Source of the DNA: Candidatus Iainarchaeum sp. | Lineage (GTDB): Archaea; Iainarchaeota; Iainarchaeia; Iainarchaeales; 0-14-0-20-30-16 | DNA: 15,209 bases | Assembly: GCA_903916665.1 (NCBI GenBank) | Contig: CAIWXP010000183.1 | Span: 1 to 15,209 of the forward strand | Direction: 5' to 3' | Shown here: positions 1 through 15,209 of the stretch, piece after piece | How positions within the stretch are numbered: the first letter of the stretch is position 1 | Layout of the letters: the number at the start of each line of letters is the position of its first letter | Notes under the pieces: model-generated | What the model saw: only the letters and a program-made list of their open reading frames with translations | Database searches by the model: none | Told to the model about the DNA's origin: nothing | Made by a program: the position numbers and the translations under genes

Positions 1-1281
1 CGATCCATTTAATTTGGCAAATGCATCCAGGAAAATATAATTATTAATATCTAAATCTAATAAATTAATTGTTAATTTATTTGGAAAATTAAAAGGATAA
101 TTGTATATTGGAGCATAGGCATAAGAACACTCATTCAAAGGAATTATATTTAAATAATAACTTCCTGTATTCAAATCGCCTATTTTTGCTTCTAGGTTTG
201 AACTTACATCATTTAATTCGGACATTAAATTTGAATCTTTATAAACAGAAACATAAAAATTACAACCATCGTTAGCATCCAATGTTAAAGATAAATAATT
301 TCCATCAAAAAAACCAAATTCGAAAACTTTTGATGCTGCCAATGTATTTACATTAACTACAACATTAGAATCCATCAAAGAATATAAATTTTCATTATAA
401 TTCACATCTGCCCTTACTGTATAAGTACCTGCATTTAAATCTAAAAATTGAGTACTTCCTTGACTATCTGTAGTTTGTGATAGAGAATTATTTAATAAAG
501 TTATCTTTACTCCAGAAACAGGATTATTTGTATTTGCATCTATTGCTTTTACAACTAAATTATTTGTTTGTATAACAGGTTTTGGTTGTTCCGCATTCAA
601 TATAATAGAACAATTATTTTCAACACACGGTTTATCATAGGGTAAGAATCCAGGAACTGTTCCACTTATTTGCAAAGAACCACAATCAGAATCTTTTGAA
701 TAATCTTTAGTACCACTAATTGATATTAAATCTGTTTTACCAGAATTTATACATTTAACAGTTAATGTAATTTGAGAATTATACAGCAAAGTTACATCAG
801 GTGATTTATACACTGATAATTTAACAATTGTTAATTTAGGAGCTGGAATATCTGGTACAGATACTGGTTTAGTAATATCAACTCTATAACTTGAGTCTGC
901 TATGGTGTATTTTTTTGTTAACTCATAACCTTCTGTTTTTACTTCTAAATTAATATCTTTACCTTCGGGCAAATTAACGAGCAAAAGGTTTTGCTGTGTT
1001 GTTAAATCTTTAACAACGTCATCATAGGATATTGTTAAATCTAAATTGTCTGTAACTGGTTGTTTATTTAAATAAAAAGAAAAGGTAACATCCATAGTCT
1101 TAGGAATCAAAAAATAAATCAGAATACTTACTAATAATACAGCTACTACCACAACACCAATATAAATATACTTTTTAGGTATTGCCTTAAATTGTTCTGA
1201 AAAACTTTTGGTTTTTGCTTGACTAATTTCTCCTCTTAGTTCTGCTTCAATATTCTGGTCATAATCATTATTTTGTTCCAT
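1..1281 (-). CDS. N-terminal 427 codons of a third large membrane-anchored surface-protein paralog (gene C). It is 3'-partial and continues past the left window edge.
   Basis: ATG at 1281..1279 on the minus strand, with an in-frame stop 5 codons upstream (TAG, plus 1297-1299) and no other start candidate between them. I checked the first ~360 nt triplet by triplet and found no minus-strand stops; the full hand translation is open to position 1 (1281 nt = 427 codons exactly). It translates as MEQNNDYDQNIEAELRGEISQAKTKSFSEQFKAIPKK-YIYIGVVVVAVLLVSILIYFL-IPKTMDVTFSFYLNKQPVTDNLDLTIS... It has the same tail / TM / beta-sandwich / 4-Cys / prealbumin-like order as genes A and B. Confidence 0.8.
   Translation of the reverse strand, partial: MEQNNDYDQNIEAELRGEISQAKTKSFSEQFKAIPKKYIYIGVVVVAVLLVSILIYFLIPKTMDVTFSFYLNKQPVTDNLDLTISYDDVVKDLTTQQNLLLVNLPEGKDINLEVKTEGYELTKKYTIADSSYRVDITKPVSVPDIPAPKLTIVKLSVYKSPDVTLLYNSQITLTVKCINSGKTDLISISGTKDYSKDSDCGSLQISGTVPGFLPYDKPCVENNCSIILNAEQPKPVIQTNNLVVKAIDANTNNPVSGVKITLLNNSLSQTTDSQGSTQFLDLNAGTYTVRADVNYNENLYSLMDSNVVVNVNTLAASKVFEFGFFDGNYLSLTLDANDGCNFYVSVYKDSNLMSELNDVSSNLEAKIGDLNTGSYYLNIIPLNECSYAYAPIYNYPFNFPNKLTINLLDLDINNYIFLDAFAKLNGS
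403..561 (-). other. Carboxypeptidase-regulatory-like (prealbumin-fold) beta-sandwich domain, protein C
   Basis: LVVKAIDANTNNPVSGVKITLLNNSLSQTTDSQGSTQFLDLNAGTYTVRADVNYNE fits the family pattern h-x-h-x-h-x-D-x3-4-P-h-x-G-h-x-h-x-h ... TD-x2-G-x-h ... L-x2-G-x-Y-x-h. Assigned by eye; no HMM was run. Confidence 0.6.
610..753 (-). other. Four-cysteine module (C-x22-C-x18-C-x4-C) of protein C
   Basis: VKCINSGKTDLISISGTKDYSKDSDCGSLQISGTVPGFLPYDKPCVENNCSII. The Cys codons were checked at 751-753 and 610-612. The spacing is the same as in A and B. Confidence 0.6.
1108..1170 (-). other. Predicted transmembrane / signal-anchor helix of protein C (aa 38-58)
   Basis: YIYIGVVVVAVLLVSILIYFL is a 21-residue uncharged hydrophobic stretch. 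It is preceded by the basic AIPKK (positive-inside rule) and is the only such stretch in the visible protein. Confidence 0.75.
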
Positions 1282-1313: not shown

Positions 1314-4300
1314 TTACTGTTGTTCACCTAATAATTTGAATATATTCCAATAGTATAAATATTTTCCTTCTTTATTTAAATAACACATATTGCTTTTTCC
1401 AATCTCATCAACTATATTTGATATGCTTTCAACACCATCTACTATATTTTGAGAATCTAATCCTTTTTGCAAAACATAGACCAAATATTCTGATATGTCA
1501 GAATAATCTAATCCTTCCTTCTTTTGTGATTTAACGGTTATAGATCCATCATTGGAGCTTTCAATAACATCATAGTATAAACTTGCAGGATAAAATAAAT
1601 TGTTTTTCTTAACAAATAATTTTGCATAGGTTGCACCATTTATAGTATTGGTATAATCTAAATTCTCATTTACCTGTTTAATATGTAAATCATTTGGTGC
1701 AAAATATAGTTCTCCATTTCCACCAATATTTGAAGATAAACTTACTTCCCCTTTTAATGCAATTGGTAAATTATCTAAAGTATATACTGTTTTATTTAAA
1801 GTATAATCAAATAATGCAGATTTACTTTTATCTGTTGAATAAGTTTTACTTGAATCATATTTTAATAGAGTATCTATTGTTGTGCCAATCCCATAATCAG
1901 GCGTAGGAGTGTAGGGCATATAATAAAATAAATGATCTGGCATTAAATAGGTATTAAAAGATAAATATACTCTAAAATTATTATCTGAATCTACAATTAA
2001 TCTTGCATCATAGATTCCGGATTGTAATACTCCAATTGGTTCTTGTTTATAGGATAAAAATGAAATATTTAATCCCGAATTTTGTAAAAATCCTTTTTGT
2101 TGATAAATATCCAATGCTTCTTTTGTATAATTATCATATAATAATTGTACCTTAAAACTAGATTCTGCATTTAATTTTGCTTTGGCCTGTAAATAATTTA
2201 CAAACTGTTTTAAATTACAACCATATTGTGATCCAAAGTCACAATTAACATCATCAGTAAAACTTATTTTAGGCATAGCATCTTGACCAGTTAAACCGCC
2301 ACCAAAACAATTTGATATTTGTGCAGCCATAAATCCTGGCTTTGGTTTTTCTTTATATACTCTAATATTTGAACTATTGGCTTTTATAATAGCAATAAAT
2401 TCCAGTGTAAAAGTAGTTAATTGACCAATATTATAGCCACATTCCGAACTATTAACTGTACAAACTATATCAACATTATAATTTAATTTAACAAAGGATT
2501 TAAAATCTAAAATTGAACTATAATCAATGTCCGCGCCATTATATGCAGTACCAACTGCTTGACCAAAATTAATTACAGATTGCGAATTTCTCATTAAATT
2601 AATCCATTTAGATTTAACATAACCCACATAAGCATCATAGTAATTTGTAGTTGCAGTAACATATTTTTTAGCCTCGGCATCAGAATAATATTTTTTCTGT
2701 AAATTATTTGACTGTATGTTTGATGAAATATAATCTTTTAAACTATTTTCTCCATTCTTTCCATAGACAGTATCTAAACCATTACAACTATAATTAACTA
2801 CAGAATCTGAATTTGGACCCGCATCGGTCGAATCTTTTAAAATAAACGATTTAGTTATGTAACTGTTATTATAATTATCAAAAAATAATTTTGAATAGGC
2901 TAAATATATAGGATCTGTTTCTGCTAAATTTATATCATTACCTGAACTATCTTTAGTTGACATAACTAATTTATCTAAACAAATCTTTGTTGTTTTATCT
3001 GTTCCGCTATACTCTAAAGGATAGTAAATAGTATAGTCTTTAAAATTAGAATTCAAAACAGAATTTATTGATTTATAGGCATCATCAGAAGTAAAATTAA
3101 TTATATTTCCAAAACTAATTCCTGTATTTGTTAAAAGATAATTATTAATAGTTTTATCTACTTCTACAGCATCATTAAAAATAACATTATTTGTACTATC
3201 AATGGTTGCATCACTAAATTTTTCTCTTTTTACATCATCAGTAATATTTGTTAATTTACAAATTGTTAAAATAGAATAGGTTCCTTCCCCCCAATCACAA
3301 CCACCCCAATAATCATCATCTAAAGAAACATAGCCCCCAAAAAGATATTCTTTCACACCAGGAGATAAACTATCATTAGTCCAAAAGGATTTCTCAAAGC
3401 CCCATAAATCACCTTGTTGTTTATTGGCCATATATATTTTAACTGGTTCAAAACCATTTGGACAAAAAGTTGCTGCACTATTATGTATTCCATAACACCA
3501 GCCCTTAACACTAGCCGTACCTAAGTTAATAAAGTATGGAAAATCTTGATTGTTTTTTATTTCTGTACCTATTTGTTCAACATATTTACTAAGGTATTCT
3601 TTATATTGTATAGGATCTTTATAATTATCTTTCCCAAAAAATTTACTTGTATCTTCACCCGCAAAACTATTCATAAAATCAAAAGAATAATCTTTTTTTG
3701 ACGGTATACTTTTTGAATAAATAAAATATCTAAAATTTGGAGCTTCCCATAACCAACCACCAAATTCATCAGTAGCAAATAATTTAAAACTATATTTTGA
3801 AAAATCCCCATTTACTTTATCTTTTAATACTTCATTATAATTATCATATTTATAGGTATTTTGATCTTGACCGTTCTTAATACCTGTTAAAAAATAAAAT
3901 AAATTATCACGAAAAGGGTGCCATATGCTAAATTCGGGTATTATTATATCATTATAAATACTACTTACAACTGATTCTAATCCATGTGGATAATATTCGT
4001 TTTTATAAACAGTAACTGGCAAATTATTATTCAAATCAGTAATGAATGGATTTTTTAAAAAATATTTGTTTTGTGTAGAACTTTCAACATTTATCTTTAA
4101 ATCTTTAACATAATCGATGGTAGTAGAATTATCTAATTTGTATAAACTTAATAATACGGCTCCAGAAAAATTATCTGGTCTATCTAAACTAAAATTAATA
4201 TTTTGATCAGGATCTAAAGTTATTTTGTTACCAAAAGATACTGGATAATTCACAGATGAAATCGATAAATAATCATCATTAACTTTACAATATTCATCAT

Positions 4301-7300
4301 CGGATTTACACAATTGAATAGTTACTGGCTTATTACAGCCGTTGCTAATTTGTAATGGTAAAGAGTCAAATTCAAAATAATCAGTAACCTGATCTCCTGG
4401 AAATGTTGCTGGTAAATCTGCGTTATCTGCCATTTTTGCTTCTCCGGGTTTCTCTATAATATTTCCTTGAGCTTTTGATCTTTCACCATCCAAATAATAT
4501 GGAAATTGATAACCGTCTGTGCCCTCTAATGAAAACAAATCTTTATTTTGATTAGTTGTATCAACACCAAAGTATAAACAATTTTCATAGGCTCTGAAAG
4601 ATACATCCAATTTTAAATTTTTAGGAATTGAATTAGTAGAATTATAATTTGATTGATCTGTTGAATAGCCCCCTAAAACATTAAATGTTAAATGTGCATC
4701 AACATTAGACATTGCTAAATCATTCAAATCATCAACAGATAATTTAATTCCGTAGGTATAATCTTGACCAGCTAAAACAACTTCTGGCAAAGGAATAATT
4801 AGGTTTTTACTAATTATACTAGAATATTTATCTTTACCATCTTTTGAAATTTTTATTGCAATAGGAATATCTGAATTAACACTTAAATTAACATCTTTAA
4901 ATTTATAATTAGAAAGACCATTAAGTTCACAATTATTAATAATATGTAAATCAAAACTTTCTTCACTAGCTTCTAAAAAAGTTACATTTGATATTTCTTT
5001 ATCATCTTTTCTTAAATCAACCTGCAAACAATCATCACTATTACTCGGCTCTCCATTAAATATAAACTTAATATCCAAAGGTATATTCTTTGTAAATACT
5101 GTATCCAACAATGATTCTATTGTTGTTAAAAAAGAATTATCAACATTTACTGGAATATATTTAAAATTTAAAAATGAGCTAAACAAAGATATATCTGGTG
5201 CCATCATTAAAGCATCAGGATTAAAAGAAATTGGTAAACTTAACTTATCGTTTGAATGCAATAAAGACCCATCTTTAAATTTGCCTTCCATAACATCTTT
5301 TTTAAATAATAAATTTACAAAATCTATGAAAACAGAAGAATCCCAATAATATTTTAAATCATAAATATTCAAATCATAGTTTGAGGTATTATTTATATCA
5401 ACAAAAACATTTGGCTTTGTACCATCTGTAGGATAATTTATTGTTGCAGATAATTTATCTTTAACAGTAAAAAAATTAAAATCAGAAACAATTTCTTTTG
5501 CAAATGGTTGATAGCTTTGCTTAAAAACAACTATTTTAATTTTATCGCCTATACCTAAAGGATTTGTAGTTACATCAATTGAACCATCATTACCCGTATA
5601 ACTAGTATTAACATATTTCCATATTCCATTAAATGAATCATAGTATTTAACTTCTGCACCTACAACAGGGCCAACATCATTTGTTACTCTAATTAAAATA
5701 TCATTTTTAATATAGGGCACTATTATATCATTTGGTTTTACTTCAACATTTAATTTTGCTTTATCACTAGAAGTTAAATTTATTTTATATTCTCCGTAAG
5801 TATTATTCCAATCATCTTTATATAATTTAAACACCATTGAACTACTATCTGGTGTTAATAATTGATAATCAAAATTAAAATCAATATAATTTCTATAGTC
5901 TATTATTTGATCATTTAAATATATTGGACCGCTTGATAAGCCAGATTCTGTTTTATTTCCAAAAATATCTGTGATTGATAATTTTCCTTGAAGAATATTT
6001 AAAAATAATTCACCAACATCCTGTTTAATACTTGAACTCCCTGATTCTTTTAAATTATAAATTGCCATTTTTTTAATATCTGAATTGTTATCAAATAATA
6101 TTTTACCAAAAACATTTCCTTTAGATGCAATTTCATGACTATTACTTAATGCATCATTCCCTGAATAGGCATTAACACATATAGGATCAGAACAAATTTG
6201 AGTACCTAATTTTCTAGAAATATTATTTAAACTTAAATCTTTTTTATCAGTACCAAACCAATACCAGAAAGAAATACTATCTCCGCCGGGTGTTGATAAA
6301 ATAACATTATTTGTTATTAAAACTCTAATTGAATACATTATTTCAGTTTCATTATCAAAAGTACTTTCAAAATCTGCTTCAGATGTAAAACTTTTTGATT
6401 TAAATAAGAAATTATCATCTGTATTTGCACCAATTAATTTTGTATCATCAAAAGAACTATTATAATTTGAATAAAAAATAGTATTTCCTAAACTATCCAT
6501 TGATATTACTTGTAGTTTTGATAACTCTATATTTTCATCTGTTTTATTTCCCGCAATTCCATAAAAAAATAATTTATTTGGTTTGTTTTTTGGCACTTTA
6601 ACTTTAAATGCATAGTAATATTCATTCATAGGTAAAAGTTCATTTGCGGGTTTTGACAATTGACTATCAGAATAAATTCCTTGAAATTCTATTGTTAATT
6701 TTTCCAAAGGGTTGTTTGGAATTATTGGAGTTAATTCTAAATTAAAACTATAGCTACCATTATTTTCCATAAAAAATGTTTGAGAATATAAATCAAGATA
6801 ATCCTGCTTTGTCACTTTAAAATAAACACTTTCTAAACTTTTAATTTGTGTTGATGCACAATTTTGATTTTTATCGACAAAAAATGTTGATTCCAATCCT
6901 CTCTCACTAGAATAAACTTCAATTATTGCATCCCCAATTGGTTTTTTATTATCAGTTAAACAAACATTTACTGTAGAATTGCCCCAGGCAACAGGTAAAA
7001 CAACAGAAACTGATGTTAATGATAATGATTTTGATTCCTGAACATTAAACGTTGCAATTCCAGATAAATAATTATGTTTTAATTTTACATCATATTGTCC
7101 TTTAGGCAATATTAAATAGTATATTCCATTATAATCTGTTGTTATTATGCCTATGTTTGTTAGGTATTCTTTATTTTCATTTTCAAACCAAATTCTTGCG
7201 AAAGGAATTGGATTTTGCGTAGTTGAATCAATTACTTGAACAACCACATTCTGATCAGTAAAAGAATTATATTTTCTAATTGTTTTTTCTATTGTTTTGT

Positions 7301-8606
7301 CCCCTGAATTTTGATCATAATTTACAGTTATATCTTCAGAAAGATATTTATCATTATAGGGTACATCTAAAGATGATGATATAATATAATTGCCTTGGTT
7401 TACCAATGGAAATACAGTTTGAGTATTAGAATCATATTTTTTAGTTTCTAAAATATTTTGATTTTCATCCTTTAAAAAAATAGTACCACTAACAAAATTA
7501 TCATCTTCTACTTTAAAATTAATATTTAAATTTCCCATGGGCAAAACATCTAAAACAAATGATACAGTTACTGCATTTCCTGCGGTTATTATTGCTTGTT
7601 TAGTTTGTGCAGCATACTTTCCACTAGGATCTGATAAAATAATATTATAGGTTCCTGATAATAATTCTGAGCTATAGGATCCAAAATCTCCAGTTATACC
7701 AGAATCAATTAATTCTTTAGTTTCAGAATTATCTCTTATTTCTAAGGTCATATTACTTGCTGGTTTTCCATCTTTACCATTAACATATACAATTAATTTA
7801 TTTTTGGGAACATTTTGCATAACTTTTACATCTGAACTTAAATTATCTTGAACTAATATTTTACACATTCCAAAATTACAATTTTGCTTTACTCCTGGAT
7901 AATTATCAATATTAGCGATGATTGAAACAGTATTACAAGGAATCTTTTGATCATTTAAAACTCCTTTAATTAAATTATATTGCATATTAAAATCTTGACA
8001 TGATACACTAATTACAGCATCTTTTTGTAATGTTCCATTTTGAGTAACCAATATAAATGAAAATAAATTCTCCTTTTGATCTGTTTTAGTTGTTGTAATT
8101 GTTGAATTTGAAACAATATTTAAAATAATTTCTGATTTATTTGTTATAAATTGTTTTGTTGTTTGAGTCATATCTTTTAATGTTATCTTAGCATTAATTG
8201 TTGAATCGCTTAAAGCATTAAATGTAACCGGGCCTTTAACATTTCTTCCTGTGCCAACTAATTCAACTGGATCTTTTGATGTTAATGTGATTGTATAGGA
8301 ATCAGTTAACAATTTTCCATCTAGATTTATTTTCAAAGTATAACTATTCATAGCAGATGAAAATACAGTAAAATAAACTATTACTGCAATAATAATTAAA
8401 AATAATACTAAAAAGAAAATCATTGAAGGCATTACTTTATCAATTACATTTGTTACACTTCGTAAATGTAATTTATCAATAAGAGAGTAATATTTATTTG
8501 ATAATTTTTTATACCAACTTTCATTCAAAGTTAATTCTTTGTTTTTAGGAGGTTCTTGAATATCTATATTTCTATCAAGGCTTGTTTCGTTTAAATTATC
8601 AGCCAT
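1314..8606 (-). CDS. Giant (2430 aa) single-pass anchored, Cys-paired, beta-sandwich-rich surface protein (gene B). No family name can be assigned.
   Basis: Uninterrupted 7.3 kb ORF in about 27% GC DNA, where stops should be frequent. The ATG at 8606 is immediately preceded by an in-frame TAA, so the start is unambiguous. Stop is TAA at 1314-1316. N-terminus: a 61-aa charged tail, then the hydrophobic helix MIFFLVLFLIIIAVIVYFTVF. It is colinear with its paralog, gene A. Confidence 0.92.
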   Translation of the reverse strand: MADNLNETSLDRNIDIQEPPKNKELTLNESWYKKLSNKYYSLIDKLHLRSVTNVIDKVMPSMIFFLVLFLIIIAVIVYFTVFSSAMNSYTLKINLDGKLLTDSYTITLTSKDPVELVGTGRNVKGPVTFNALSDSTINAKITLKDMTQTTKQFITNKSEIILNIVSNSTITTTKTDQKENLFSFILVTQNGTLQKDAVISVSCQDFNMQYNLIKGVLNDQKIPCNTVSIIANIDNYPGVKQNCNFGMCKILVQDNLSSDVKVMQNVPKNKLIVYVNGKDGKPASNMTLEIRDNSETKELIDSGITGDFGSYSSELLSGTYNIILSDPSGKYAAQTKQAIITAGNAVTVSFVLDVLPMGNLNINFKVEDDNFVSGTIFLKDENQNILETKKYDSNTQTVFPLVNQGNYIISSSLDVPYNDKYLSEDITVNYDQNSGDKTIEKTIRKYNSFTDQNVVVQVIDSTTQNPIPFARIWFENENKEYLTNIGIITTDYNGIYYLILPKGQYDVKLKHNYLSGIATFNVQESKSLSLTSVSVVLPVAWGNSTVNVCLTDNKKPIGDAIIEVYSSERGLESTFFVDKNQNCASTQIKSLESVYFKVTKQDYLDLYSQTFFMENNGSYSFNLELTPIIPNNPLEKLTIEFQGIYSDSQLSKPANELLPMNEYYYAFKVKVPKNKPNKLFFYGIAGNKTDENIELSKLQVISMDSLGNTIFYSNYNSSFDDTKLIGANTDDNFLFKSKSFTSEADFESTFDNETEIMYSIRVLITNNVILSTPGGDSISFWYWFGTDKKDLSLNNISRKLGTQICSDPICVNAYSGNDALSNSHEIASKGNVFGKILFDNNSDIKKMAIYNLKESGSSSIKQDVGELFLNILQGKLSITDIFGNKTESGLSSGPIYLNDQIIDYRNYIDFNFDYQLLTPDSSSMVFKLYKDDWNNTYGEYKINLTSSDKAKLNVEVKPNDIIVPYIKNDILIRVTNDVGPVVGAEVKYYDSFNGIWKYVNTSYTGNDGSIDVTTNPLGIGDKIKIVVFKQSYQPFAKEIVSDFNFFTVKDKLSATINYPTDGTKPNVFVDINNTSNYDLNIYDLKYYWDSSVFIDFVNLLFKKDVMEGKFKDGSLLHSNDKLSLPISFNPDALMMAPDISLFSSFLNFKYIPVNVDNSFLTTIESLLDTVFTKNIPLDIKFIFNGEPSNSDDCLQVDLRKDDKEISNVTFLEASEESFDLHIINNCELNGLSNYKFKDVNLSVNSDIPIAIKISKDGKDKYSSIISKNLIIPLPEVVLAGQDYTYGIKLSVDDLNDLAMSNVDAHLTFNVLGGYSTDQSNYNSTNSIPKNLKLDVSFRAYENCLYFGVDTTNQNKDLFSLEGTDGYQFPYYLDGERSKAQGNIIEKPGEAKMADNADLPATFPGDQVTDYFEFDSLPLQISNGCNKPVTIQLCKSDDEYCKVNDDYLSISSVNYPVSFGNKITLDPDQNINFSLDRPDNFSGAVLLSLYKLDNSTTIDYVKDLKINVESSTQNKYFLKNPFITDLNNNLPVTVYKNEYYPHGLESVVSSIYNDIIIPEFSIWHPFRDNLFYFLTGIKNGQDQNTYKYDNYNEVLKDKVNGDFSKYSFKLFATDEFGGWLWEAPNFRYFIYSKSIPSKKDYSFDFMNSFAGEDTSKFFGKDNYKDPIQYKEYLSKYVEQIGTEIKNNQDFPYFINLGTASVKGWCYGIHNSAATFCPNGFEPVKIYMANKQQGDLWGFEKSFWTNDSLSPGVKEYLFGGYVSLDDDYWGGCDWGEGTYSILTICKLTNITDDVKREKFSDATIDSTNNVIFNDAVEVDKTINNYLLTNTGISFGNIINFTSDDAYKSINSVLNSNFKDYTIYYPLEYSGTDKTTKICLDKLVMSTKDSSGNDINLAETDPIYLAYSKLFFDNYNNSYITKSFILKDSTDAGPNSDSVVNYSCNGLDTVYGKNGENSLKDYISSNIQSNNLQKKYYSDAEAKKYVTATTNYYDAYVGYVKSKWINLMRNSQSVINFGQAVGTAYNGADIDYSSILDFKSFVKLNYNVDIVCTVNSSECGYNIGQLTTFTLEFIAIIKANSSNIRVYKEKPKPGFMAAQISNCFGGGLTGQDAMPKISFTDDVNCDFGSQYGCNLKQFVNYLQAKAKLNAESSFKVQLLYDNYTKEALDIYQQKGFLQNSGLNISFLSYKQEPIGVLQSGIYDARLIVDSDNNFRVYLSFNTYLMPDHLFYYMPYTPTPDYGIGTTIDTLLKYDSSKTYSTDKSKSALFDYTLNKTVYTLDNLPIALKGEVSLSSNIGGNGELYFAPNDLHIKQVNENLDYTNTINGATYAKLFVKKNNLFYPASLYYDVIESSNDGSITVKSQKKEGLDYSDISEYLVYVLQKGLDSQNIVDGVESISNIVDEIGKSNMCYLNKEGKYLYYWNIFKLLGEQQ
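1317..2327 (-). other. Conserved C-terminal (membrane-distal) module of protein B (aa ~2094-2430), family unknown
   Basis: It aligns without large gaps to A aa ~1838-2178. Shared motifs are NCFGGG[LM]TG, QLLYDNYT[KR]EALDIY, YLMPDHLFYYMPYTPxPDYGIGTTI, IGGNGE and Y[IL]YYWNI. Confidence 0.6.
5493..5708 (-). other. Prealbumin-like domain 4, protein B (aa 967-1038)
   Basis: KNDILIRVTNDVGPVVGAEVKYYDSFNGIWKYVNTSYTGNDGSIDVTTNPLGIGDKIKIVVFKQSYQPFAKEI. Confidence 0.5.
6729..6977 (-). other. Prealbumin-like domain 3, protein B (aa 544-626)
   Basis: STVNVCLTDNKKPIGDAIIEVYSSERGLESTFFVDKNQNCASTQIKSLESVYFKVTKQDYLDLYSQTF. Confidence 0.5.
7032..7253 (-). other. Prealbumin-like (CarboxypepD_reg-like) domain 2, protein B (aa 452-525)
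   Basis: NVVVQVIDSTTQNPIPFARIWFENENKEYLTNIGIITTDYNGIYYLILPKGQYDVKLKHNYLSG. Confidence 0.6.
7185..7262. repeat. Second high-identity island, copy in gene B (encodes FTDQNVVVQVIDSTTQNPIPFARIWF)
   Basis: 7 mismatches in 78 nt (hand count, about 91%) against 13988..14065 at offset 6803. The peptides are 25/26 identical. Confidence 0.85.
7551..7802 (-). other. Prealbumin-like beta-sandwich domain 1, protein B (aa 269-352)
   Basis: KLIVYVNGKDGKPASNMTLEIRDNSETKELIDSGITGDFGSYSSELLSGTYNIILSDPSGKYA. This is a looser match to the same pattern. Confidence 0.45.
7863..8000 (-). other. Four-cysteine module (C-x20-C-x18-C-x4-C) of protein B (aa 203-248)
   Basis: VSCQDFNMQYNLIKGVLNDQKIPCNTVSIIANIDNYPGVKQNCNFGMCKIL. 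The Cys codons were verified at 7998-8000 and 7863-7865. Confidence 0.6.
8127..8412. repeat. Dispersed direct repeat, copy 1. It covers the 5' coding region of gene B (TM helix plus first beta-sandwich) and is near-identical to 14924..15209.
   Basis: Ungapped alignment at a constant offset of 6797 nt. Hand count: 13 mismatches in the 241-nt core (8172-8412 vs 14969-15209, about 95%). There is a divergent 14-nt patch at 8158-8171, then identity resumes back to 8127. Confidence 0.9.
8361..8423 (-). other. Predicted transmembrane / signal-anchor helix of protein B (aa 62-82)
   Basis: MIFFLVLFLIIIAVIVYFTVF is preceded by a Lys/Arg-containing 61-aa tail and followed by SSA|MNS. It is the only long hydrophobic stretch in 2430 aa. 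Confidence 0.8.
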
Positions 8607-8610
8607 TTAA

Positions 8611-8615
8611 ATCAC
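8611..8615 (-). promoter_or_regulatory. Candidate Shine-Dalgarno-like element GTGAT, 4 nt upstream of the gene B ATG and overlapping the gene A TGA stop
   Basis: The minus strand reads GAG-TGA-TTTAA-ATG. GTGAT is complementary to the AUCAC part of the conserved 16S rRNA 3' end (..GAUCACCUCCU). The same pentamer lies 3 nt upstream of the gene C ATG. Confidence 0.4.
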
Positions 8616-11600
8616 TCTTGACCTAATAATATATTTGTAATGTTCCAATAGTAAATATACTCGTTATCTTTCATTGTATAACAAATATCGCTAGTAGCTA
8701 TTTTATCATTTATTTCAGACATATTACTAACTTGATAAACTTGTGCATCGGTATCTACAGAAGTATTTGATTTAACAACATAGGCCAAATATAATTGATC
8801 ATCACTATAATCAACGTTGGGTCTTTTCTTTATTGTTACTGTTGAATTATCTTCTGATTTTATTACATCGTAGGTTATACCTGCAGAATAAATCTTATCA
8901 TTCTTTTTAACAAATATACCTTCGTAGGATACTTCACCTTTCATATCCACAGATAAATCATCGGCAATTAAAGTTATTGGTTTTATTCTTAATTCATTTG
9001 GATAAAATGTAATTTCACCATTTCCTCCAATATCAGTTAAGGCAACTCTTCCAACCATGGTAATAGGTAAATTATCTTTAGAATATAAACTTTCAATTAA
9101 ATTATAGGTAAACAAAGGAGAGATGTTTGTGTTTGTAGAATTAGGATAGGAGATTCCAGATTTATAAAAAAGTGTTCCACCAATTGTTGTACCAATACCA
9201 TAGTCCGGATTTGGTGTATAAGGCATATAATAAAATAAATGATCGGGCATCAAATAAGTTTCATAGGTCAAATAAACTTTGAAATTAGTATCTGATTCTT
9301 TATATAAAGTTCCACTATATATTCCTGTTGGCAATATACCCAATGATTCTCCACTAGAAGATAGGAAAGATACAGTTACATTTTTGTTACTTAAAAATGA
9401 TTTATTATAAATATCCAATGCTTCTCTTGTATAATTATCATATAATAATTGTGCAACAAAATCAACTTTAGTTCCATTATTACTATTTGATAAAACTTTT
9501 AAATAATCTACAAAATCAGACATATTACAAATATATTTTGATCCTACACTACAATCATTAACTTTTTCATTAAAACTAATTTTAGGAATTACATCAGATC
9601 CAGTCATACCCCCACCAAAACAATTTGAGTTTTCATTAACAACATATTTCGGTTTTGGTAATTCTTTATATAATCTTACTCCTGATGCTTCACCAGTAAT
9701 ATCCAACTTATCATAGGACACTTCATTAAAATCTCTATCAATAGCATAAAAATTTGGTCTAAATTTATCTTTATTTAATCTACAAACTGTTAATATTTTA
9801 TAGTCTCCCATGCCTGTATTTCTATATCCTTTCCCGCCCATGGTATCCAATCCAATATCTCCACCAAAGATATAGGCTTTATAACCATTTTCAATATAAG
9901 GATCTTTTACCATAAACTTTTTAGTTATTGAATCTTCTCCGCCATGAACTAATTCTAAAGTAATATTAACAGGATCATAATTCTCAGGACAGAAAGTTAC
10001 TGCCGAAACATTTGTTCCACCACCACTATTTCCTCTAAAAAAACCAAATGCCGCATTAATAAAATATGGATATTTCTCTTCATTTAATTTTGTACCTATT
10101 TCTTTAACATAATCATATATTTGATGGTAGGGTATTGGGTCTAAATAATGTCCAGTAAAATATACTTCGTGTATTTTACACTGATCAAAATAATCTGAAT
10201 TTTCATTAATTGAACTAAAATCATAATTTAATTTTGGAAATAAACTATAATTTTCATCTCCAACATATACCATATAGGCATAACCTGCTCCTTCATGTTC
10301 CTGTGTTCCACAAGTAGAAGAACAGTGTGATTGATAAGCACCACAAAAATCATCATAACTTCTTCCAGCAATAGTATCCAATCCTGCATCTCTATAAATA
10401 TCATCCCAATATTGATAACCATCAAATACTAGACTTAAAAATCCTTTTTTAATAATATTTGAGTATTCCATACTTCCTACACTAAATCCACAACCTCCAC
10501 CACCTACAGATTTAGGAGATCCTGCACCAGAAGTATCTTCCCAATCACCATGGGTTTTAAAAAAATAATTACTATCTGATAATTTTCCTCCAAATAAAAT
10601 AGCATTTACATCAAATTTACCCTTTATTACTGATCCAACTCTACAATTTCTACCATCATTGTCCCAAAATGGAGAATCTGGAACATTATTACTCAAAAGA
10701 GTATAATAATCCATATTAGGATAATATTCATTTTTGAAATAATAAAAAGGCATTTTTGTATTCATATCTAAAATAAATGGATTAACAACAAAATTATTTG
10801 CACCTACAGATCCTTCTATATTTATTTTTACATCTTTAACAATTTGATTAATTTCTCTTGTTTCAGTTGAATTATCTTCAATACTTAATAATGTTAATGG
10901 AATTATTGCTGCTCCAGAAAAACTATCTGGTCTCATTAATGAAAATTTATAATTTTGGTCAGCAGCTAAATTTATTTCTGTATTGGGTTGCCCCAAGAAA
11001 GAACTTGATACTAAATCCAATGGTTCAGTACCAGATATGTTACAATATTTGTCCAAATCAGGATTATTAGTATTACAAAGTTTAAAATTAATTGTCTTAC
11101 CACAACCATTACTTACTACTAATGGTAATTCGGTAATTTCATATCTATCATTATAAACATTTTTAGCATTTACTGAATCCTGTGAATCTAAACTATCTCT
11201 TGAATAAAGTATAGTTTCATTATTATCTACTGCTCTTTCACCCACTAAATAATAAGGTAATTTTAAAATATCTGTATTTTCTAAAATATAATCATTTTCA
11301 CTTGCACCAATTGTTTTTGCAGTATCGCTATCTAAACCAAATTTCAAACAATCTTCTGCAGTTTTAAATTGCAACGATAATGTTTCGTTGGTTGATTTAG
11401 AATCTAATAAATCAGCTGATGCAGTAGATTTATATTTTCCAACAACATCTGCAGTTAAATCAAAGGCTGCACTAGACATTGCTAATTCATTAAAATCACC
11501 CACAACATCTAATTTCAAAATATATACTGCTGGTTCAACATCTGAACCCCCATCTAAAGAATATTTTAAAGGGATTTGTTTATCTTTATTAGTATTTCCA

Positions 11601-14600
11601 GAAAATAATACTTCTCCAGTTTTATCAGAAACTTCAACACTAATATCTAAACCAGTATTTAATTCTAAAAACACATCCTTAAATTTATATTTAAATCCAT
11701 TGGCTAAAGTACAATCATTAAAAACTCTTAAATATACTTTATCTTCTTTTGAATCTAAAAATACAATATCTTTTAATGGTGCAGTTTCTGCAGATTCAAA
11801 TTGTAATCTTAAACAAGGTTCATTTCCTGGTTTACCTTCAAAACCAAAATTAAAAGTAATGGGTATATTTTTATACATTCTTATATCGTTTGATTTTGCA
11901 ATTAATTCAGATACCCCATCTTTTGGTGTAAAATTAAAATACAAAGATCCAGAAATTGTTTTGGTTCCATCTAAAGTTTGTAATAATTGTGGATCATAAA
12001 CAACTGGTAAACTTAATTTCTTTTCAGTATCTGTTGAATGCAATATAAATCCATTGGCAAATTTATTTGTCATGTTTTCAATTGTTAAAAATCTATTAAT
12101 AAATTCTTCATCTGTTTTTGTATAATCCCAATAATAATTCAAATCATAAATATTTAAATCATAGCCCAAATCATTTTGAACTTCTACTTCTTTTTGTGGA
12201 TTTGCAGGATCAGTAGGATAAATAACATTAATAGTTAGTGGTCCCTTTGGATCAAAGCCATTAAAATCAGAATTTATTTCTTTAACATTAGCTTTATAAT
12301 TATCTGCCGATACAACTAATTTAATTTTGTCATTTCTTGCAACAGGATTTGTATTTAATTCAACATAGCCTGTTTTATCAGTATAGGCTGTTTTATCATT
12401 TAATAAATGCCAATTACTATTTGAATATTCATAATATTTAATTTCTGCACCATGCACTGGATAATTATCTTGACCCAAAACAACTAATTTAATATCATTA
12501 GAAATATAGGGTACAATATAATCAGGATAATTTACTGTTAATTCACCATTGGCACTATTCATAAATTGTAAAGAATAAACTGTATTATTTATATCCCAAA
12601 AATCTTTATATGCATTAAAATTCAAACTAGCTGAATTGTTAGTAACTAAACTATAATTAAAATCAAAATCTAAATATTGACCTTGATTAACTGGTTGATT
12701 ATCAACATATATTGGTCCAGAACTCATTGCTTTCGAATCTTTAGAGCCATCAACATTATTTATACCATATTCTGCACCATTTAATGCAACACTTAAATCC
12801 AATAATTCTGCTTTTGATTTAATTGCTTTTTCGTCAGAATTATACAATGCAAAATTATAATCTTTATTACTAAATCTTACCTTACCATATATTCTACCAA
12901 CAGCAGATGCATTATAGGGACTAGTTATTGAATTGTTTGCAGAATCATAGGCATCAACACAAATTTCTGTTTCACAAATATTTGTACCTATTTTCTTAAC
13001 TATTTTTGTTAAATTTATTTTATCATTGTCTAAACCAAAACCATAATTAAAAACAATTGAATCACCATTTACTGCACTAGGATTAACATTTGTTGTTATA
13101 CTTGTTTTAACAACATATTGCAATTCAACATCATTTTCTGCAGGTGCATCAAATCTATGAATATTTGCAAAACTCTTTGCTTTATATGCGAAATCATCTT
13201 CCACATCTAAAATAGTTCCACTCATCAAATCCAAATTATTTTGTTTATAATCTGGATAATAATTTATAATTCCTGAATCATTTACTAATCTTGTTTGCAT
13301 TTTTGAATTAGTTGCATTTTCATCTTTTAAATCACCGGTTACACCAACAAATTTTATTGTTCTATTATTATTAACATAGGCTTTAGGCACTTTAACTTTA
13401 AAAGAATAATAGTAATCCTTTGAAGTATCTAATTTTGTTGCAGGTTCTTTTAAATATGAATCATTATAAATACCATCAAATTGATAATCTAAATTTTGAA
13501 CAGGCTCAACAGGTCTTGTTTTTTCTAATACTATATCAATGTTATAAGTTTCATTATTTAAAACAAAATATGTTTGAGTATATTTTTCATAATAATCTGT
13601 TTTTTTAACATGGAAATAAATATTTTCTAAACTTTTTACTTGTTTTGTTGCACAATTATTTTGAGCATCCAAATAAAAACTAGATTCTAAACCATCTGTA
13701 CTATACACATCAACATAGGCATCATTTAAATCGCCGTTAGAAATATCTTTTAAACAAACATTAATTGTTGCATTACCCCATGCTACTGCTAAAGAAACAT
13801 TTTTTGTTGTCATTGTTAATGATTTTGTTTGGTCAACAGAAAATCCTTGTATTCCAGATAAATAATAATGTTTCAAATTAACATTATAACTACCAACGGG
13901 CATAACTTTATAAAAAATACCATTTGCATCTGTTAAAACAAATGCGCCATCAACACCATAGTCTAATAAACTACCATCAACAGAAGTAAACCAAATTTTT
14001 GCAAAGGGAATTGGATTTTGTGTAGTTGAGTCAATTACTTGAACAACCACATTCTGATCTGTGAAAGGATTTGTTTTTCTTATACTGTATTTTACATCCA
14101 TATCTCCAGAATCTTTATCATAGGTAATTGGTAAAACATCTGCAATATAATCATTTGTTTTATCTGCACTTAATGATAATGATAAATTATAACTTCCTTT
14201 TTTAGTTATTGGCATTACCAAAGAATTATTAGAATCAAAAGGTTTTGATTGCAAAATTAATTGATTTGCATCTTTAAAAAATAATGTGCCATTAACATAA
14301 TTTTTATCTTCAACATCAAAACTAATATTTAAATTTCCAATTGCTTTTTCTTGCATAGTAAAATAAATTGGATTTTGGTTTCCTGCATGTACTTCTACAT
14401 TTTGTGTTTGTGATGCATACACATTATTTGGATCTGAAACTAAAATAACATATTTTCCTTCTGCTAAATCAATATTATATGCACCAAAATCTTTTGTTTT
14501 TCCAGAATCAATTAATTCTTGACCTGTAGAATCTTCTCTTACTTCAACAGTAAAATCTTTTATTGGATCATTATTTGCATATCTTACATAAACAACTAAT

Positions 14601-15209
14601 CTATTTTTTGTTAAATTAACTGGCGCTTTACTTAAATTATCAACAAACATTAATCTACAAAGACCAGGATTACAACTTTGTTTTACACTAGGATAGTTTT
14701 CAACATTTGCAGTTATACTAACATTATCACAACTAATTTTAATATCACTCAAATTTCCTTTTACAACTGGCAATTCATTATTATAATCTTGACATTCTAT
14801 TTTAACTTTTCCATCTTTTTCTAAAAAACCATTTTGAGTATTAAAAATAAATGAAAATATATTCTCTTTTTGTTTTGTTACTGCTTTTGAATCAGATTTT
14901 GTTGGAGAAGTTAAACTTAATACAATTTCTGATTTATTTGTTGTAAATTGTTTTATTATGGGCGTTAAATCTTTTAATGTTACTTTAGCATTAATTGTTG
15001 AATCGCTTAAAGCATTAAATATAACCGGGCCTTTAATATTTTTTCCTGTACCAACTAATTCAACTGGATCTTTTGATGTTAATGTAATTGTATAGGAATC
15101 AGTTAATAATTTTCCATCTAGATTTATTTTCAAAGTATAGCTATTCATACCCGATGAAAATGCAGTAAAATAAACTATTATTGCAATAATAATTAAAAAT
15201 AATACTAAA
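8612..15209 (-). CDS. Giant (at least 2198 aa visible) paralog of gene B (gene A). It is 5'-partial; the true start lies beyond the right window edge.
   Basis: The ORF track starts it at Met 15148, but the frame stays open to 15209. The 20 extra codons read LVLFLIIIAIIVYFTAFSSG before MNSY, matching aa 66-85 of protein B (LVLFLIIIAVIVYFTVFSSA before M86 NSY). So Met 15148 is internal and the TM helix and tail lie upstream. Stop is TGA at 8612-8614. Confidence 0.92.
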   Translation of the reverse strand, partial: LVLFLIIIAIIVYFTAFSSGMNSYTLKINLDGKLLTDSYTITLTSKDPVELVGTGKNIKGPVIFNALSDSTINAKVTLKDLTPIIKQFTTNKSEIVLSLTSPTKSDSKAVTKQKENIFSFIFNTQNGFLEKDGKVKIECQDYNNELPVVKGNLSDIKISCDNVSITANVENYPSVKQSCNPGLCRLMFVDNLSKAPVNLTKNRLVVYVRYANNDPIKDFTVEVREDSTGQELIDSGKTKDFGAYNIDLAEGKYVILVSDPNNVYASQTQNVEVHAGNQNPIYFTMQEKAIGNLNISFDVEDKNYVNGTLFFKDANQLILQSKPFDSNNSLVMPITKKGSYNLSLSLSADKTNDYIADVLPITYDKDSGDMDVKYSIRKTNPFTDQNVVVQVIDSTTQNPIPFAKIWFTSVDGSLLDYGVDGAFVLTDANGIFYKVMPVGSYNVNLKHYYLSGIQGFSVDQTKSLTMTTKNVSLAVAWGNATINVCLKDISNGDLNDAYVDVYSTDGLESSFYLDAQNNCATKQVKSLENIYFHVKKTDYYEKYTQTYFVLNNETYNIDIVLEKTRPVEPVQNLDYQFDGIYNDSYLKEPATKLDTSKDYYYSFKVKVPKAYVNNNRTIKFVGVTGDLKDENATNSKMQTRLVNDSGIINYYPDYKQNNLDLMSGTILDVEDDFAYKAKSFANIHRFDAPAENDVELQYVVKTSITTNVNPSAVNGDSIVFNYGFGLDNDKINLTKIVKKIGTNICETEICVDAYDSANNSITSPYNASAVGRIYGKVRFSNKDYNFALYNSDEKAIKSKAELLDLSVALNGAEYGINNVDGSKDSKAMSSGPIYVDNQPVNQGQYLDFDFNYSLVTNNSASLNFNAYKDFWDINNTVYSLQFMNSANGELTVNYPDYIVPYISNDIKLVVLGQDNYPVHGAEIKYYEYSNSNWHLLNDKTAYTDKTGYVELNTNPVARNDKIKLVVSADNYKANVKEINSDFNGFDPKGPLTINVIYPTDPANPQKEVEVQNDLGYDLNIYDLNYYWDYTKTDEEFINRFLTIENMTNKFANGFILHSTDTEKKLSLPVVYDPQLLQTLDGTKTISGSLYFNFTPKDGVSELIAKSNDIRMYKNIPITFNFGFEGKPGNEPCLRLQFESAETAPLKDIVFLDSKEDKVYLRVFNDCTLANGFKYKFKDVFLELNTGLDISVEVSDKTGEVLFSGNTNKDKQIPLKYSLDGGSDVEPAVYILKLDVVGDFNELAMSSAAFDLTADVVGKYKSTASADLLDSKSTNETLSLQFKTAEDCLKFGLDSDTAKTIGASENDYILENTDILKLPYYLVGERAVDNNETILYSRDSLDSQDSVNAKNVYNDRYEITELPLVVSNGCGKTINFKLCNTNNPDLDKYCNISGTEPLDLVSSSFLGQPNTEINLAADQNYKFSLMRPDSFSGAAIIPLTLLSIEDNSTETREINQIVKDVKINIEGSVGANNFVVNPFILDMNTKMPFYYFKNEYYPNMDYYTLLSNNVPDSPFWDNDGRNCRVGSVIKGKFDVNAILFGGKLSDSNYFFKTHGDWEDTSGAGSPKSVGGGGCGFSVGSMEYSNIIKKGFLSLVFDGYQYWDDIYRDAGLDTIAGRSYDDFCGAYQSHCSSTCGTQEHEGAGYAYMVYVGDENYSLFPKLNYDFSSINENSDYFDQCKIHEVYFTGHYLDPIPYHQIYDYVKEIGTKLNEEKYPYFINAAFGFFRGNSGGGTNVSAVTFCPENYDPVNITLELVHGGEDSITKKFMVKDPYIENGYKAYIFGGDIGLDTMGGKGYRNTGMGDYKILTVCRLNKDKFRPNFYAIDRDFNEVSYDKLDITGEASGVRLYKELPKPKYVVNENSNCFGGGMTGSDVIPKISFNEKVNDCSVGSKYICNMSDFVDYLKVLSNSNNGTKVDFVAQLLYDNYTREALDIYNKSFLSNKNVTVSFLSSSGESLGILPTGIYSGTLYKESDTNFKVYLTYETYLMPDHLFYYMPYTPNPDYGIGTTIGGTLFYKSGISYPNSTNTNISPLFTYNLIESLYSKDNLPITMVGRVALTDIGGNGEITFYPNELRIKPITLIADDLSVDMKGEVSYEGIFVKKNDKIYSAGITYDVIKSEDNSTVTIKKRPNVDYSDDQLYLAYVVKSNTSVDTDAQVYQVSNMSEINDKIATSDICYTMKDNEYIYYWNITNILLGQE
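8615..9637 (-). other. Conserved C-terminal (membrane-distal) module of protein A (aa ~1838-2178), family unknown
   Basis: Same motifs as the B module. YLMPDHLFYYMPYTPNPDYGIGTTI is encoded at 9182..9256, against 1875..1949 in B. Confidence 0.6.
8629..8636 (-). promoter_or_regulatory. A/T-only octamer AAATATAT at -30..-23 from the gene B ATG, inside the 3' end of gene A (very weak candidate promoter)
   Basis: Same distance from the ATG as the element upstream of gene C. It cannot be distinguished from background composition. Confidence 0.12.
12278..12499 (-). other. Prealbumin-like domain 4, protein A (aa 884-957)
   Basis: NDIKLVVLGQDNYPVHGAEIKYYEYSNSNWHLLNDKTAYTDKTGYVELNTNPVARNDKIKLVVSADNYKANVKEI. 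Confidence 0.5.
13526..13774 (-). other. Prealbumin-like domain 3, protein A (aa 459-541)
   Basis: NATINVCLKDISNGDLNDAYVDVYSTDGLESSFYLDAQNNCATKQVKSLENIYFHVKKTDYYEKYTQTY. Confidence 0.5.
13829..14059 (-). other. Prealbumin-like (CarboxypepD_reg-like) domain 2, protein A (aa 364-440)
   Basis: QNVVVQVIDSTTQNPIPFAKIWFTSVDGSLLDYGVDGAFVLTDANGIFYKVMPVGSYNVNLKHYYLSG. Confidence 0.6.
13988..14065. repeat. Second high-identity island, copy in gene A (encodes FTDQNVVVQVIDSTTQNPIPFAKIWF)
   Basis: See the copy in gene B. Confidence 0.85.
14351..14602 (-). other. Prealbumin-like beta-sandwich domain 1, protein A (aa 183-266)
   Basis: RLVVYVRYANNDPIKDFTVEVREDSTGQELIDSGKTKDFGAYNIDLAEGKYVILVSDPNNVYA. It is colinear with B domain 1. 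Confidence 0.45.
14657..14794 (-). other. Four-cysteine module (C-x20-C-x18-C-x4-C) of protein A (aa 119-164)
   Basis: IECQDYNNELPVVKGNLSDIKISCDNVSITANVENYPSVKQSCNPGLCRLM. The Cys codons were verified at 14792-14794 and 14657-14659. Confidence 0.6.
14924..15209. repeat. Dispersed direct repeat, copy 2 (5' coding region of gene A). It probably continues beyond the window edge.
   Basis: See copy 1. Similarity is still high at the last base of the window. Confidence 0.9.
15158..15209 (-). other. Predicted transmembrane / signal-anchor helix of protein A (truncated by the window edge)
   Basis: Codons upstream of the ORF-track Met read LVLFLIIIAIIVYFTAF, nearly identical to the TM helix of protein B. 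Confidence 0.75.

Follow-up and report, generated by a model that had tools for sequence, protein, structure and literature searches.

Two giant genes lying side by side in a stretch of archaeal-looking DNA end in the same domain, and the question raised is what that domain is and what it might do at the end of such large proteins. The stretch in question, here the 'window', covers positions 1 to 15,209 of contig CAIWXP010000183.1 and encodes on its minus strand two giant paralogs, A and B, plus the start of a third giant gene, C. The shared domain, described here simply as the module, occupies the last 337 residues of B and the last 341 of A. A preliminary description of this DNA had pointed to the module as a conserved domain of no recognisable family, and had supposed that it might be a binding head. 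The answer offered here is that the module is a new and very rare domain family found inside a conserved, undescribed multi-gene cluster. With a probability of roughly 0.45, that is, somewhat short of even odds, it would serve as a disulfide-stapled, membrane-distal head, with a variable beta-lobe contacting another cell's envelope or a partner protein.

The C-terminal module

The features upon which the comparison of A and B is based are as follows.

1317..2327, minus strand: module of B, 337 amino acids (aa), aa 2094-2430; a profile of the family matches aa 2089-2429 at E=2.5e-127
8615..9637, minus strand: module of A, 341 aa, aligned both to the B module and to the family profile
1875..1949, minus strand: most conserved motif of the module in B, YLMPDHLFYYMPYTPTPDYGIGTTI; family core D-x-[LI]-F-Y-Y-[ML]-P
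9182..9256, minus strand: the same motif in A, YLMPDHLFYYMPYTPNPDYGIGTTI

The two modules align with 166 identities over 342 positions (49%) and 13 gap positions, at E=8e-105. Every motif that had been quoted as common to them is indeed present in both, i.e., SNCFGGG[LM]TG..PKISF, CxxGSxYxCN, QLLYDNYT[KR]EALDIY, DNLPI, IGGNGE[LI].F.PN[DE]L.IK, and Y[IL]YYWNI. So too is a 25-residue string said to differ at a single position: translation of 1875-1949 and of 9182-9256 gives YLMPDHLFYYMPYTP[T/N]PDYGIGTTI, with 24 of 25 residues identical. Of those 24 residues, 13 are specified by the same codon in A and B and 11 by synonymous ones, for a DNA identity of 62/75; over the modules as a whole the codon is shared at 112 of the 166 identical residues. 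As synonymous differences are found within a motif that is 24/25 identical, the conservation is one of protein sequence, held by purifying selection and not left by recent copying.

The preliminary description had also set a conserved module against variable sequence just upstream, and here only one part of the claim stands. The variable stretch is real, consisting of aa ~1550-1700 of B, which are of low conservation in the family alignment, along with an insertion found in B. Special conservation of the module, however, had been overstated. Across a nine-protein family alignment, modules are 0.18-0.44 identical to that of B, versus 0.38-0.48 for aa 200-700, and over the first ~1500 aa the identity of A to B is 42%. 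The module, that is, is conserved well, but not more so than the rest of the protein.

A rare family

The profile search and check of phyletic distribution that had been recommended were carried out, and with them the family turns out to be very rare. A HMMER scan of 1.84 billion representative proteins, using a profile of the two window modules, returned nine matches, three of them to full-length proteins of 2098-2192 aa that terminate in the module. Full-length B as query finds four full-length homologs (P0003-P0006) of 2098-2251 aa, at 38-40% identity, and a cluster look-up adds a further member of 2227 aa (P0016). An improved family profile scores P0006 at E=6e-52. Word-index protein searches instead miss the family: the B module alone retrieves only a 209-aa fragment of B itself, and a 12-sequence profile retrieves only two proteins, such that it was the full-length query and the exhaustive HMMER scan which found the members. 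Scans with back-translated patterns (two of GTDB species genomes and two of JGI metagenome contigs) turned up no further relative, nor did a pattern scan of 2.9 million viral contigs. The module family is real, but it is extremely rare in public data.

Full-length members are ~2100-2430 aa long, a length that is part of the definition of the family, and in each the module stops no more than a few residues short of the stop codon. Both window proteins show the other defining traits: the module closes the protein, the only membrane segment is N-terminal, and there are four conserved cysteines, FYY[ML]P, and a C-Y...YY[WY]N hairpin. The module in this sense defines its family.

Search for known families and folds

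Among characterised families, whether of Pfam, NCBIfam, PHROGs, or the PDB, the module has no match, and the absence of a recognisable family claimed earlier accordingly holds up across Pfam, NCBIfam, PHROGs, PDB sequence and profile searches, and Foldseek. A hit to a known Pfam or structural family, which would have told against that claim, was sought and none was obtained. Membership in Pfam, NCBIfam, or PHROGs was taken to require either a match that reaches the curated cutoff or sub-threshold matches that are consistent across family members. Pfam, run on whole proteins, gives nothing inside the module. What it does give lies elsewhere, namely a CarboxypepD_reg-type beta-sandwich (E=1.8e-13 in A) and sub-threshold matches to bMG3 (23.7 bits versus a cutoff of 34.9), Big_1, and PEGA. 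Run on the two modules alone and on 12 family modules singly, it yields scattered matches at E ~0.004-0.2, each seen in one member. For the full-length window proteins, PHROGs return no match and NCBIfam only two weak sub-cutoff matches, both outside of the module. A tblastn search of 50,697 phage records finds no relative.

Against the PDB, a phmmer search with the module has a spurious best match at E=0.019, a profile search with the module has zero matches, and a sequence search with full-length B finds nothing. The family profile gives one weak beta-sandwich match, to 8qox_B ('Conserved membrane protein', E=0.006), which may be an archaeal S-layer stalk protein. For folds, a match was defined as a Foldseek E of 1e-3 or less together with a meaningful template-modeling score (TM-score). 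The predicted model of the module reaches at best E=0.04 with TM-scores of at most 0.17 in the PDB, and E=0.003 with TM-scores of at most 0.19 in BFVD, the alignments obtained being short and to generic beta-sandwiches only. Provisionally, then, and over these two collections, the modeled fold appears to have no detectable relative. Searches of the general DPANN literature likewise turned up no account of this module family.

Three specific candidates were rejected. A thioester or macroglobulin core is contradicted by the lack of a CxEQ motif and of a thioester domain (TED). A Hint- or intein-like start at NCFGGGLTG has neither fold nor family support, and there is no terminal HN. An RTX calcium site, for which tandem GGxGxDxUx nonapeptides would be required, is represented by a single imperfect GGxG[ED][IL]x[FY] turn per module, in which the acidic residue is one position early, with no tandem copies.

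Predicted structure and conserved residues

AlphaFold given the two window modules alone reaches a mean predicted local distance difference test score (pLDDT) of 39.6, and given a 12-sequence alignment reaches a reasonably confident pLDDT of 77.8 with a predicted TM-score of 0.74. Residue n of the resulting model corresponds to B aa 2088+n. The model has an alpha/beta lobe (~10-132, with helices at 44-55 and 74-83), a connecting stretch of low confidence (133-177, pLDDT ~48-64) in which part of the best-conserved motif lies, a beta-rich lobe (178-305), and then a helix, a hairpin bearing NMCY...YLYYWNI (319-332), and a final helix.

Near-invariant among the sequences that cover each column are four cysteines, at B positions 2100, 2122, 2130, and 2408; the Gly, Pro, and Thr of a C-F-G-G-G-x-T-G...P turn; L-x-x-D-N-Y; G-T; several tyrosines; F-Y-Y-x-P (F, Y, Y, and P in 10 of 10 sequences); a G-G-x-G-[ED] turn; and the C-Y...Y-Y-x-N hairpin. 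Nowhere in the module alignment is there a conserved Glu, Ser, Lys, or Arg. As the conserved residues are Cys, Gly, Pro, and aromatics, with none of those four among them, the module appears to be a domain of structural or binding character and not an enzyme. Based on the spacing of the cysteines along with a hairpin that folds back, disulfides probably link C2122 with C2130 locally and C2100 with C2408, the latter pair joining the two ends of the domain.

Conservation is uneven along the module. Mean pairwise identity is highest in the signature segment (0.48), followed by the C-terminal hairpin (0.39) and the N-terminal lobe (0.36), and it is 0.26 in the beta-lobe, which is also the segment with the most indels. 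The module from this perspective would be a fixed scaffold carrying one variable face, the beta-lobe.

Position relative to the membrane

Consideration of where the module sits requires the larger features of the window.

1314..8606, minus strand: gene B, encoding a 2430-aa protein of the giant2 type, built of a predicted cytoplasmic N-terminal tail, a single membrane segment, a long ectodomain rich in beta structure, and the module
8612..15209+, minus strand: gene A, a paralog of B (42% identical), its 5' end beyond the window edge
1..1281, minus strand: gene C, encoding the N-terminal 427 aa of a giant3 with its own N-terminal tail and membrane segment; exits the window
8361..8429, minus strand: membrane anchor of B, aa ~60-82, MPSMIFFLVLFLIIIAVIVYFTV, its sole strongly hydrophobic segment (Kyte-Doolittle 3.25)
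15149..15208, minus strand: membrane anchor of A, 5' of the listed ATG (15148)
2352..3209, minus strand: B-specific insertion of ~285 aa, aa ~1800-2085, directly before the module; occupancy 0.00-0.23 in the nine-protein alignment

For A, the 60 nt lying 5' of the listed ATG at 15148 are in frame and encode the membrane segment LVLFLIIIAIIVYFTAFSSG. That listed ATG is an internal Met, and the aa numbers previously given for A were counted from it and so are off, whereas the nucleotide coordinates were right.

Every full-length giant2 checked possesses one strongly hydrophobic segment, which is N-terminal, and no other. It follows that anchor and module lie at opposite ends of the chain, as had been supposed. 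Among the ~2000 residues that follow the anchor, A and B each have an even number of cysteines, 26, which fall at matching positions wherever the two sequences align. There are in addition 36-42 N-glycosylation sequons, and matches to beta-sandwich domains of the CarboxypepD_reg, SpaA, and Big types. As judged from those cysteine positions, sequons, and beta-sandwiches, the residues beyond the anchor look extracellular, and giant2 would be a type II membrane protein whose larger portion lies outside the cell. The insertion of B, which is missing from A and from seven other family members and has no Pfam match, ends just before the module, marking in this way the N-terminal boundary of the domain.

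Preceding the anchor is a tail of 35-65 residues, in which most members share KYYxLxDK...IDKVMPSxIFF. In the window this tail motif falls at 8421-8519 (minus strand; B aa ~30-62), and it is seen also at the N-termini of giant1 and giant2 proteins of four related loci (L001, L002, L004, and L005). Its presence in giant1 and in most giant2 proteins suggests a common intracellular partner or targeting signal.

A common end-piece of three giants

In all related loci, as far as each contig reaches, the order of the giant genes is giant1, giant2, giant3. The giant1 proteins (~2410-2480 aa) are distant paralogs, 20-24% identical to B, and giant3 is 1539 aa long in L001 and 2018 aa on a JGI contig. 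In giant1 the core of the module (residues 52-146, LLYDNY to FYYMP) is recognised close to the C-terminus, interrupted by large insertions (hhalign probability 94.7%, E=6e-8), and its second half (residues 130-340, FYY[LM]P to YYxW) is found in giant3 (profile-profile probability 74%, E=2.7e-5). The motifs can be made out by eye in these paralogous giants as well. On this comparison the module is an end-piece common to all three giants of the cluster, diverged in giant1 and giant3, and the earlier suggestion of a common, important function is supported by such diverged copies and by the module being what defines the family.

All three loci with DNA downstream of the giant genes encode small membrane proteins there. 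In L001 (21520-23286) and L004 (16701-18559) these are five small multi-pass proteins of ~141-146, 114-120, 82, 106-115, and 112-114 aa, and an 87-kb JGI contig has four of similar sizes plus an FtsX/MacB-like gene. Of these small proteins, the four run against NCBIfam match no family, and no Pfam match is on record for any. These small proteins may be part of the same apparatus as the giants.

What the module may do

The proposal considered here, i.e., that of a membrane-distal head, is of a self-contained extracellular domain that would end these rare giant surface proteins. In order along the chain, its parts would be an alpha/beta lobe; an aromatic, proline-rich connector bearing D-x-L-F-Y-Y-M-P; a beta-rich lobe; and, folding back, a terminal helix plus hairpin (N-I-C-Y...Y-x-Y-Y-W-N). 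A fixed scaffold would be made up of the conserved lobe, the signature segment, and the hairpin, and the indel-rich beta-lobe would supply a contact surface for another cell's envelope, a glycan, or a partner protein. The heads of the three giants of the cluster may also recognise each other or a common partner. We infer, in other words, an extracellular tip position, a disulfide pairing, a binding function, and an archaeal host. A role in cell-cell interaction would be consistent with duplication of giant2 in the window, with gene conversion at the 5' ends, with the insertion in B, and with toxin-antitoxin or abortive-infection (Abi) genes that are found beside two related loci. The duplication, the gene conversion, and the toxin-antitoxin or Abi genes are signs of a fast-evolving interaction locus.

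Several considerations weigh against this proposal. The structure model is built upon an alignment of only 12 sequences, and the most conserved motif falls at least partly in the least confident region of that model (133-177). FSS[AGPS] directly follows the membrane segment in most giant2 members (B aa 83-86; window ~8349-8360, minus strand) and could be a signal-peptidase site, at which cleavage would release the ectodomain and undo the tip geometry. Even with the anchor kept, the module would be a physical tip only if the ectodomain is extended rather than compact. Lastly, a receptor-binding tip that determines specificity would not usually be so strongly conserved over three classes of paralog, and such conservation fits assembly or docking equally.

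That last point leads to the most serious competitor, which is somewhat unlikely, namely that the module is an assembly or docking domain with which nothing foreign is bound. The module would then join the three giants distally, in an S-layer-like lattice or canopy, or else would dock upon the small membrane proteins encoded downstream. The diverged module copies that end giant1 and giant3 of the same cluster are consistent with joining of this kind, as are three giant genes that are always adjacent and co-oriented (with gaps of 5-32 nt in the window), conserved residues that are structural in character (Cys, Gly, Pro, and aromatics), a scaffold no less conserved than the rest of the protein, and the weak 8qox_B match. 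Indeed, a conserved partner or an assembly role would explain why paralogs keep one scaffold no less well than would a specific receptor-binding head. A beta-lobe that is indel-rich and 26% identical, however, together with duplication of giant2 and lineage-specific insertions, is a pattern more often expected with interaction proteins than with lattice proteins, and an envelope protein would be expected throughout its lineage rather than be extremely rare.

A more elaborate scheme, and one we consider decidedly doubtful, is that giant1-3 plus the five small multi-pass membrane proteins constitute an undescribed archaeal surface apparatus, e.g., an organelle with which an ultra-small symbiont contacts its host or attaches to it, in which the shared domain would co-assemble three fibres into a distal cap engaging the partner cell.

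It is very improbable that the module is instead an enzyme, such as a glycosidase, peptidase, or lipase that opens a partner's envelope, with a fold too divergent to recognise. Candidate residues do exist, i.e., a conserved D2158-N2159 (in LLYDNY) and, in most members, D2224-H2225 within a PDH motif, and in one preprint (bioRxiv 10.1101/2023.11.21.568195) lytic domains are proposed for giant proteins of other ultra-small or predatory microbes. No invariant set of catalytic type is seen, however: the His of PDH is kept in nine full-length proteins and replaced in two other members, the motif becoming VDS or PNQ; no Glu, Ser, Lys, or Arg is conserved; and no enzyme family or fold is matched.

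Least credible of all is that these are proteins of a virus or mobile element, with the module as a tail-fibre or spike tip, as the short local Foldseek matches of 80-106 residues (probability up to 0.97, E of at least 0.003) to beta-sandwich proteins of the phage virion or decoration type and the toxin-antitoxin or Abi genes near two related loci are met by the absence of a PHROG match and of any relative in the viral contigs and phage records searched, by TM-scores of at most 0.19 on the query, by neighbours of related loci that are cellular housekeeping genes (rpiA, Mre11, ribonucleotide reductase, and CorA), and by an N-terminal membrane anchor, which tail fibres do not have.

Comparison with known systems

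Functionally, the nearest analogues are the giant 'SPEARE' proteins of Nanohaloarchaeota, which are ultra-small symbiotic archaea. SPEARE proteins are 5,000-9,400 aa long and include a VirB4/TraG-like ATPase domain, and a further ATPase of this kind is encoded beside them (PMC10266531). They are membrane-bound, mostly extracellular, rich in Ig-like and beta-sandwich domains, variable among strains, and proposed to bind host surfaces (PMC10266531; Hamm et al. 2019, cited there). The giant2 proteins resemble these in being membrane-bound, in this case via a single N-terminal segment, and in having a beta-sandwich ectodomain (CarboxypepD_reg, SpaA, and Big types). They differ in being 2,100-2,430 aa long and in showing no sequence relationship to SPEARE proteins. 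Here, moreover, there are three tandem paralogs, followed by small membrane proteins in the three loci with downstream sequence. Pfam and NCBIfam detect no ATPase or other catalytic domain in A, B, or C, and among the neighbours of related loci there is no VirB4/TraG-like ATPase, only an unrelated AAA_14 gene in L003. Given the absence of that ATPase, giant2 is not a SPEARE member.

With alpha-2-macroglobulin-like and other CarboxypepD_reg/Big-type surface proteins of bacteria there is a likeness in chains of prealbumin-like or MG-like beta-sandwiches, N-terminal membrane attachment, and a distinct end domain. The likeness goes little further, however: bMG3 is matched only below threshold, there is no thioester domain, A2M/TED match, or CxEQ, the Cys motif of the module is NCFGGG, and the macroglobulin receptor-binding domain is unrelated to the C-terminal module. 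Archaeal S-layer glycoproteins, which have a C-terminal membrane segment or PGF-CTERM, are also unlike giant2, whose anchor is N-terminal and whose C-terminus lacks a hydrophobic segment, ending ...YYWNIFKLLGEQQ.

Mycoplasma mobile glides by means of Gli123, Gli349, and Gli521, huge membrane-anchored surface proteins encoded side by side by a very AT-rich, wall-less or minimal cell, with a distal binding 'foot'. The analogy is one of layout only, as here there is no sequence similarity, there is no in-frame TGA, and the neighbours are archaeal-looking.

Host recognition and attachment by ultra-small, host-dependent archaea are largely unknown, with few molecules implicated. A compact domain that could be expressed alone, with a usable model, recognisable motifs, and a conserved gene cluster, provides a handle for binding assays, antibodies, labelling in cryo-electron tomography, and database annotation. 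Should the role instead be one of ordinary adhesion, the value would be mainly that of a new domain family and of a marker for a rare lineage.

Host lineage

This family belongs to uncultivated, AT-rich organisms that are probably ultra-small archaea of the DPANN type. An archaeal host is favoured by the nature of the genes beside related loci, by low G+C, by the lack of obvious Shine-Dalgarno sequences, and by the lack of any relative in the pattern scans of GTDB species representatives. One such neighbour encodes an Mre11 whose best matches are archaeal (1e-30 versus 5e-4 for bacterial SbcD), and another encodes a helix-turn-helix protein of the Sta1/Lrs14/Csa3 type. Pointing in the opposite direction is a GGDEF gene that adjoins one related locus, GGDEF domains being typical of bacteria. 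Mycoplasma origin or coding (TGA as Trp) is ruled out, as gene B has no in-frame TGA in 2430 codons.

Organization of the window

The window has a G+C content of 25-30% and is coding nearly throughout, on the minus strand. Genes A, B, and C follow one another head to tail with gaps of 5 nt (A-B) and 32 nt (B-C), and scans of the window for promoters and terminators stay at chance level, which together suggest a single transcription unit. No obvious Shine-Dalgarno sequence precedes B or C. A tandem-repeat scan of the window is similarly at chance level, and Rfam and tRNA scans of the window plus four related loci find two tRNAs only, both in L004.

Gene C has CarboxypepD_reg and SpaA-like matches in Pfam, and its product is 34-39% identical to those of the genes downstream of giant2 in L001, L003, L005, and L006, and 27% identical in L007. 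By this measure C is an ortholog of giant3. The order in the window is giant2a, giant2b, giant3, i.e., a tandem duplication of giant2.

Across the 5' ends of A and B, 14970-15209 and 8172-8412 (minus strand) are 93-97% identical as DNA, a tract covering the anchor and the first ~60 residues of the ectodomain. Elsewhere the two genes either cannot be aligned or have a DNA identity of ~68-70%. The near-identical tract has the look of recent gene conversion between the tandem paralogs.

A and B differ mostly in inserts that come after the conserved first ~1500 aa and before the module. The variable region of A (9638-10714, minus strand; aa ~1479-1837 of the listed open reading frame, ORF) contains a Gly/Cys-rich stretch, …GGGGCGFSVGS…HCSSTCGTQEHEGAGY…, that is missing from B. 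Antisense to gene A, at 11388-11999 on the plus strand, there is also a 203-aa ORF with a TTG start, most likely a chance occurrence in AT-rich coding DNA.

Within giant1, L002 (aa 1565-1589) and L004 (aa 1577-1611) show an internal Gly/Ala-rich hydrophobic stretch, e.g., LLITAAATAPIPVAGWIICGIAAAAAATMVIVAAI, of a kind not present in the full-length giant2 members scanned, and it may represent either a further membrane segment or a loop that inserts into the membrane. Just upstream of giant1, and divergent from it, is a beta-CASP/metallo-beta-lactamase gene resembling 'ligase-associated DNA damage response exonuclease', seen in L001 (635-1630), L002 (1-865), and L005 (1644-2624), and its position next to giant1 is a case of conserved synteny.

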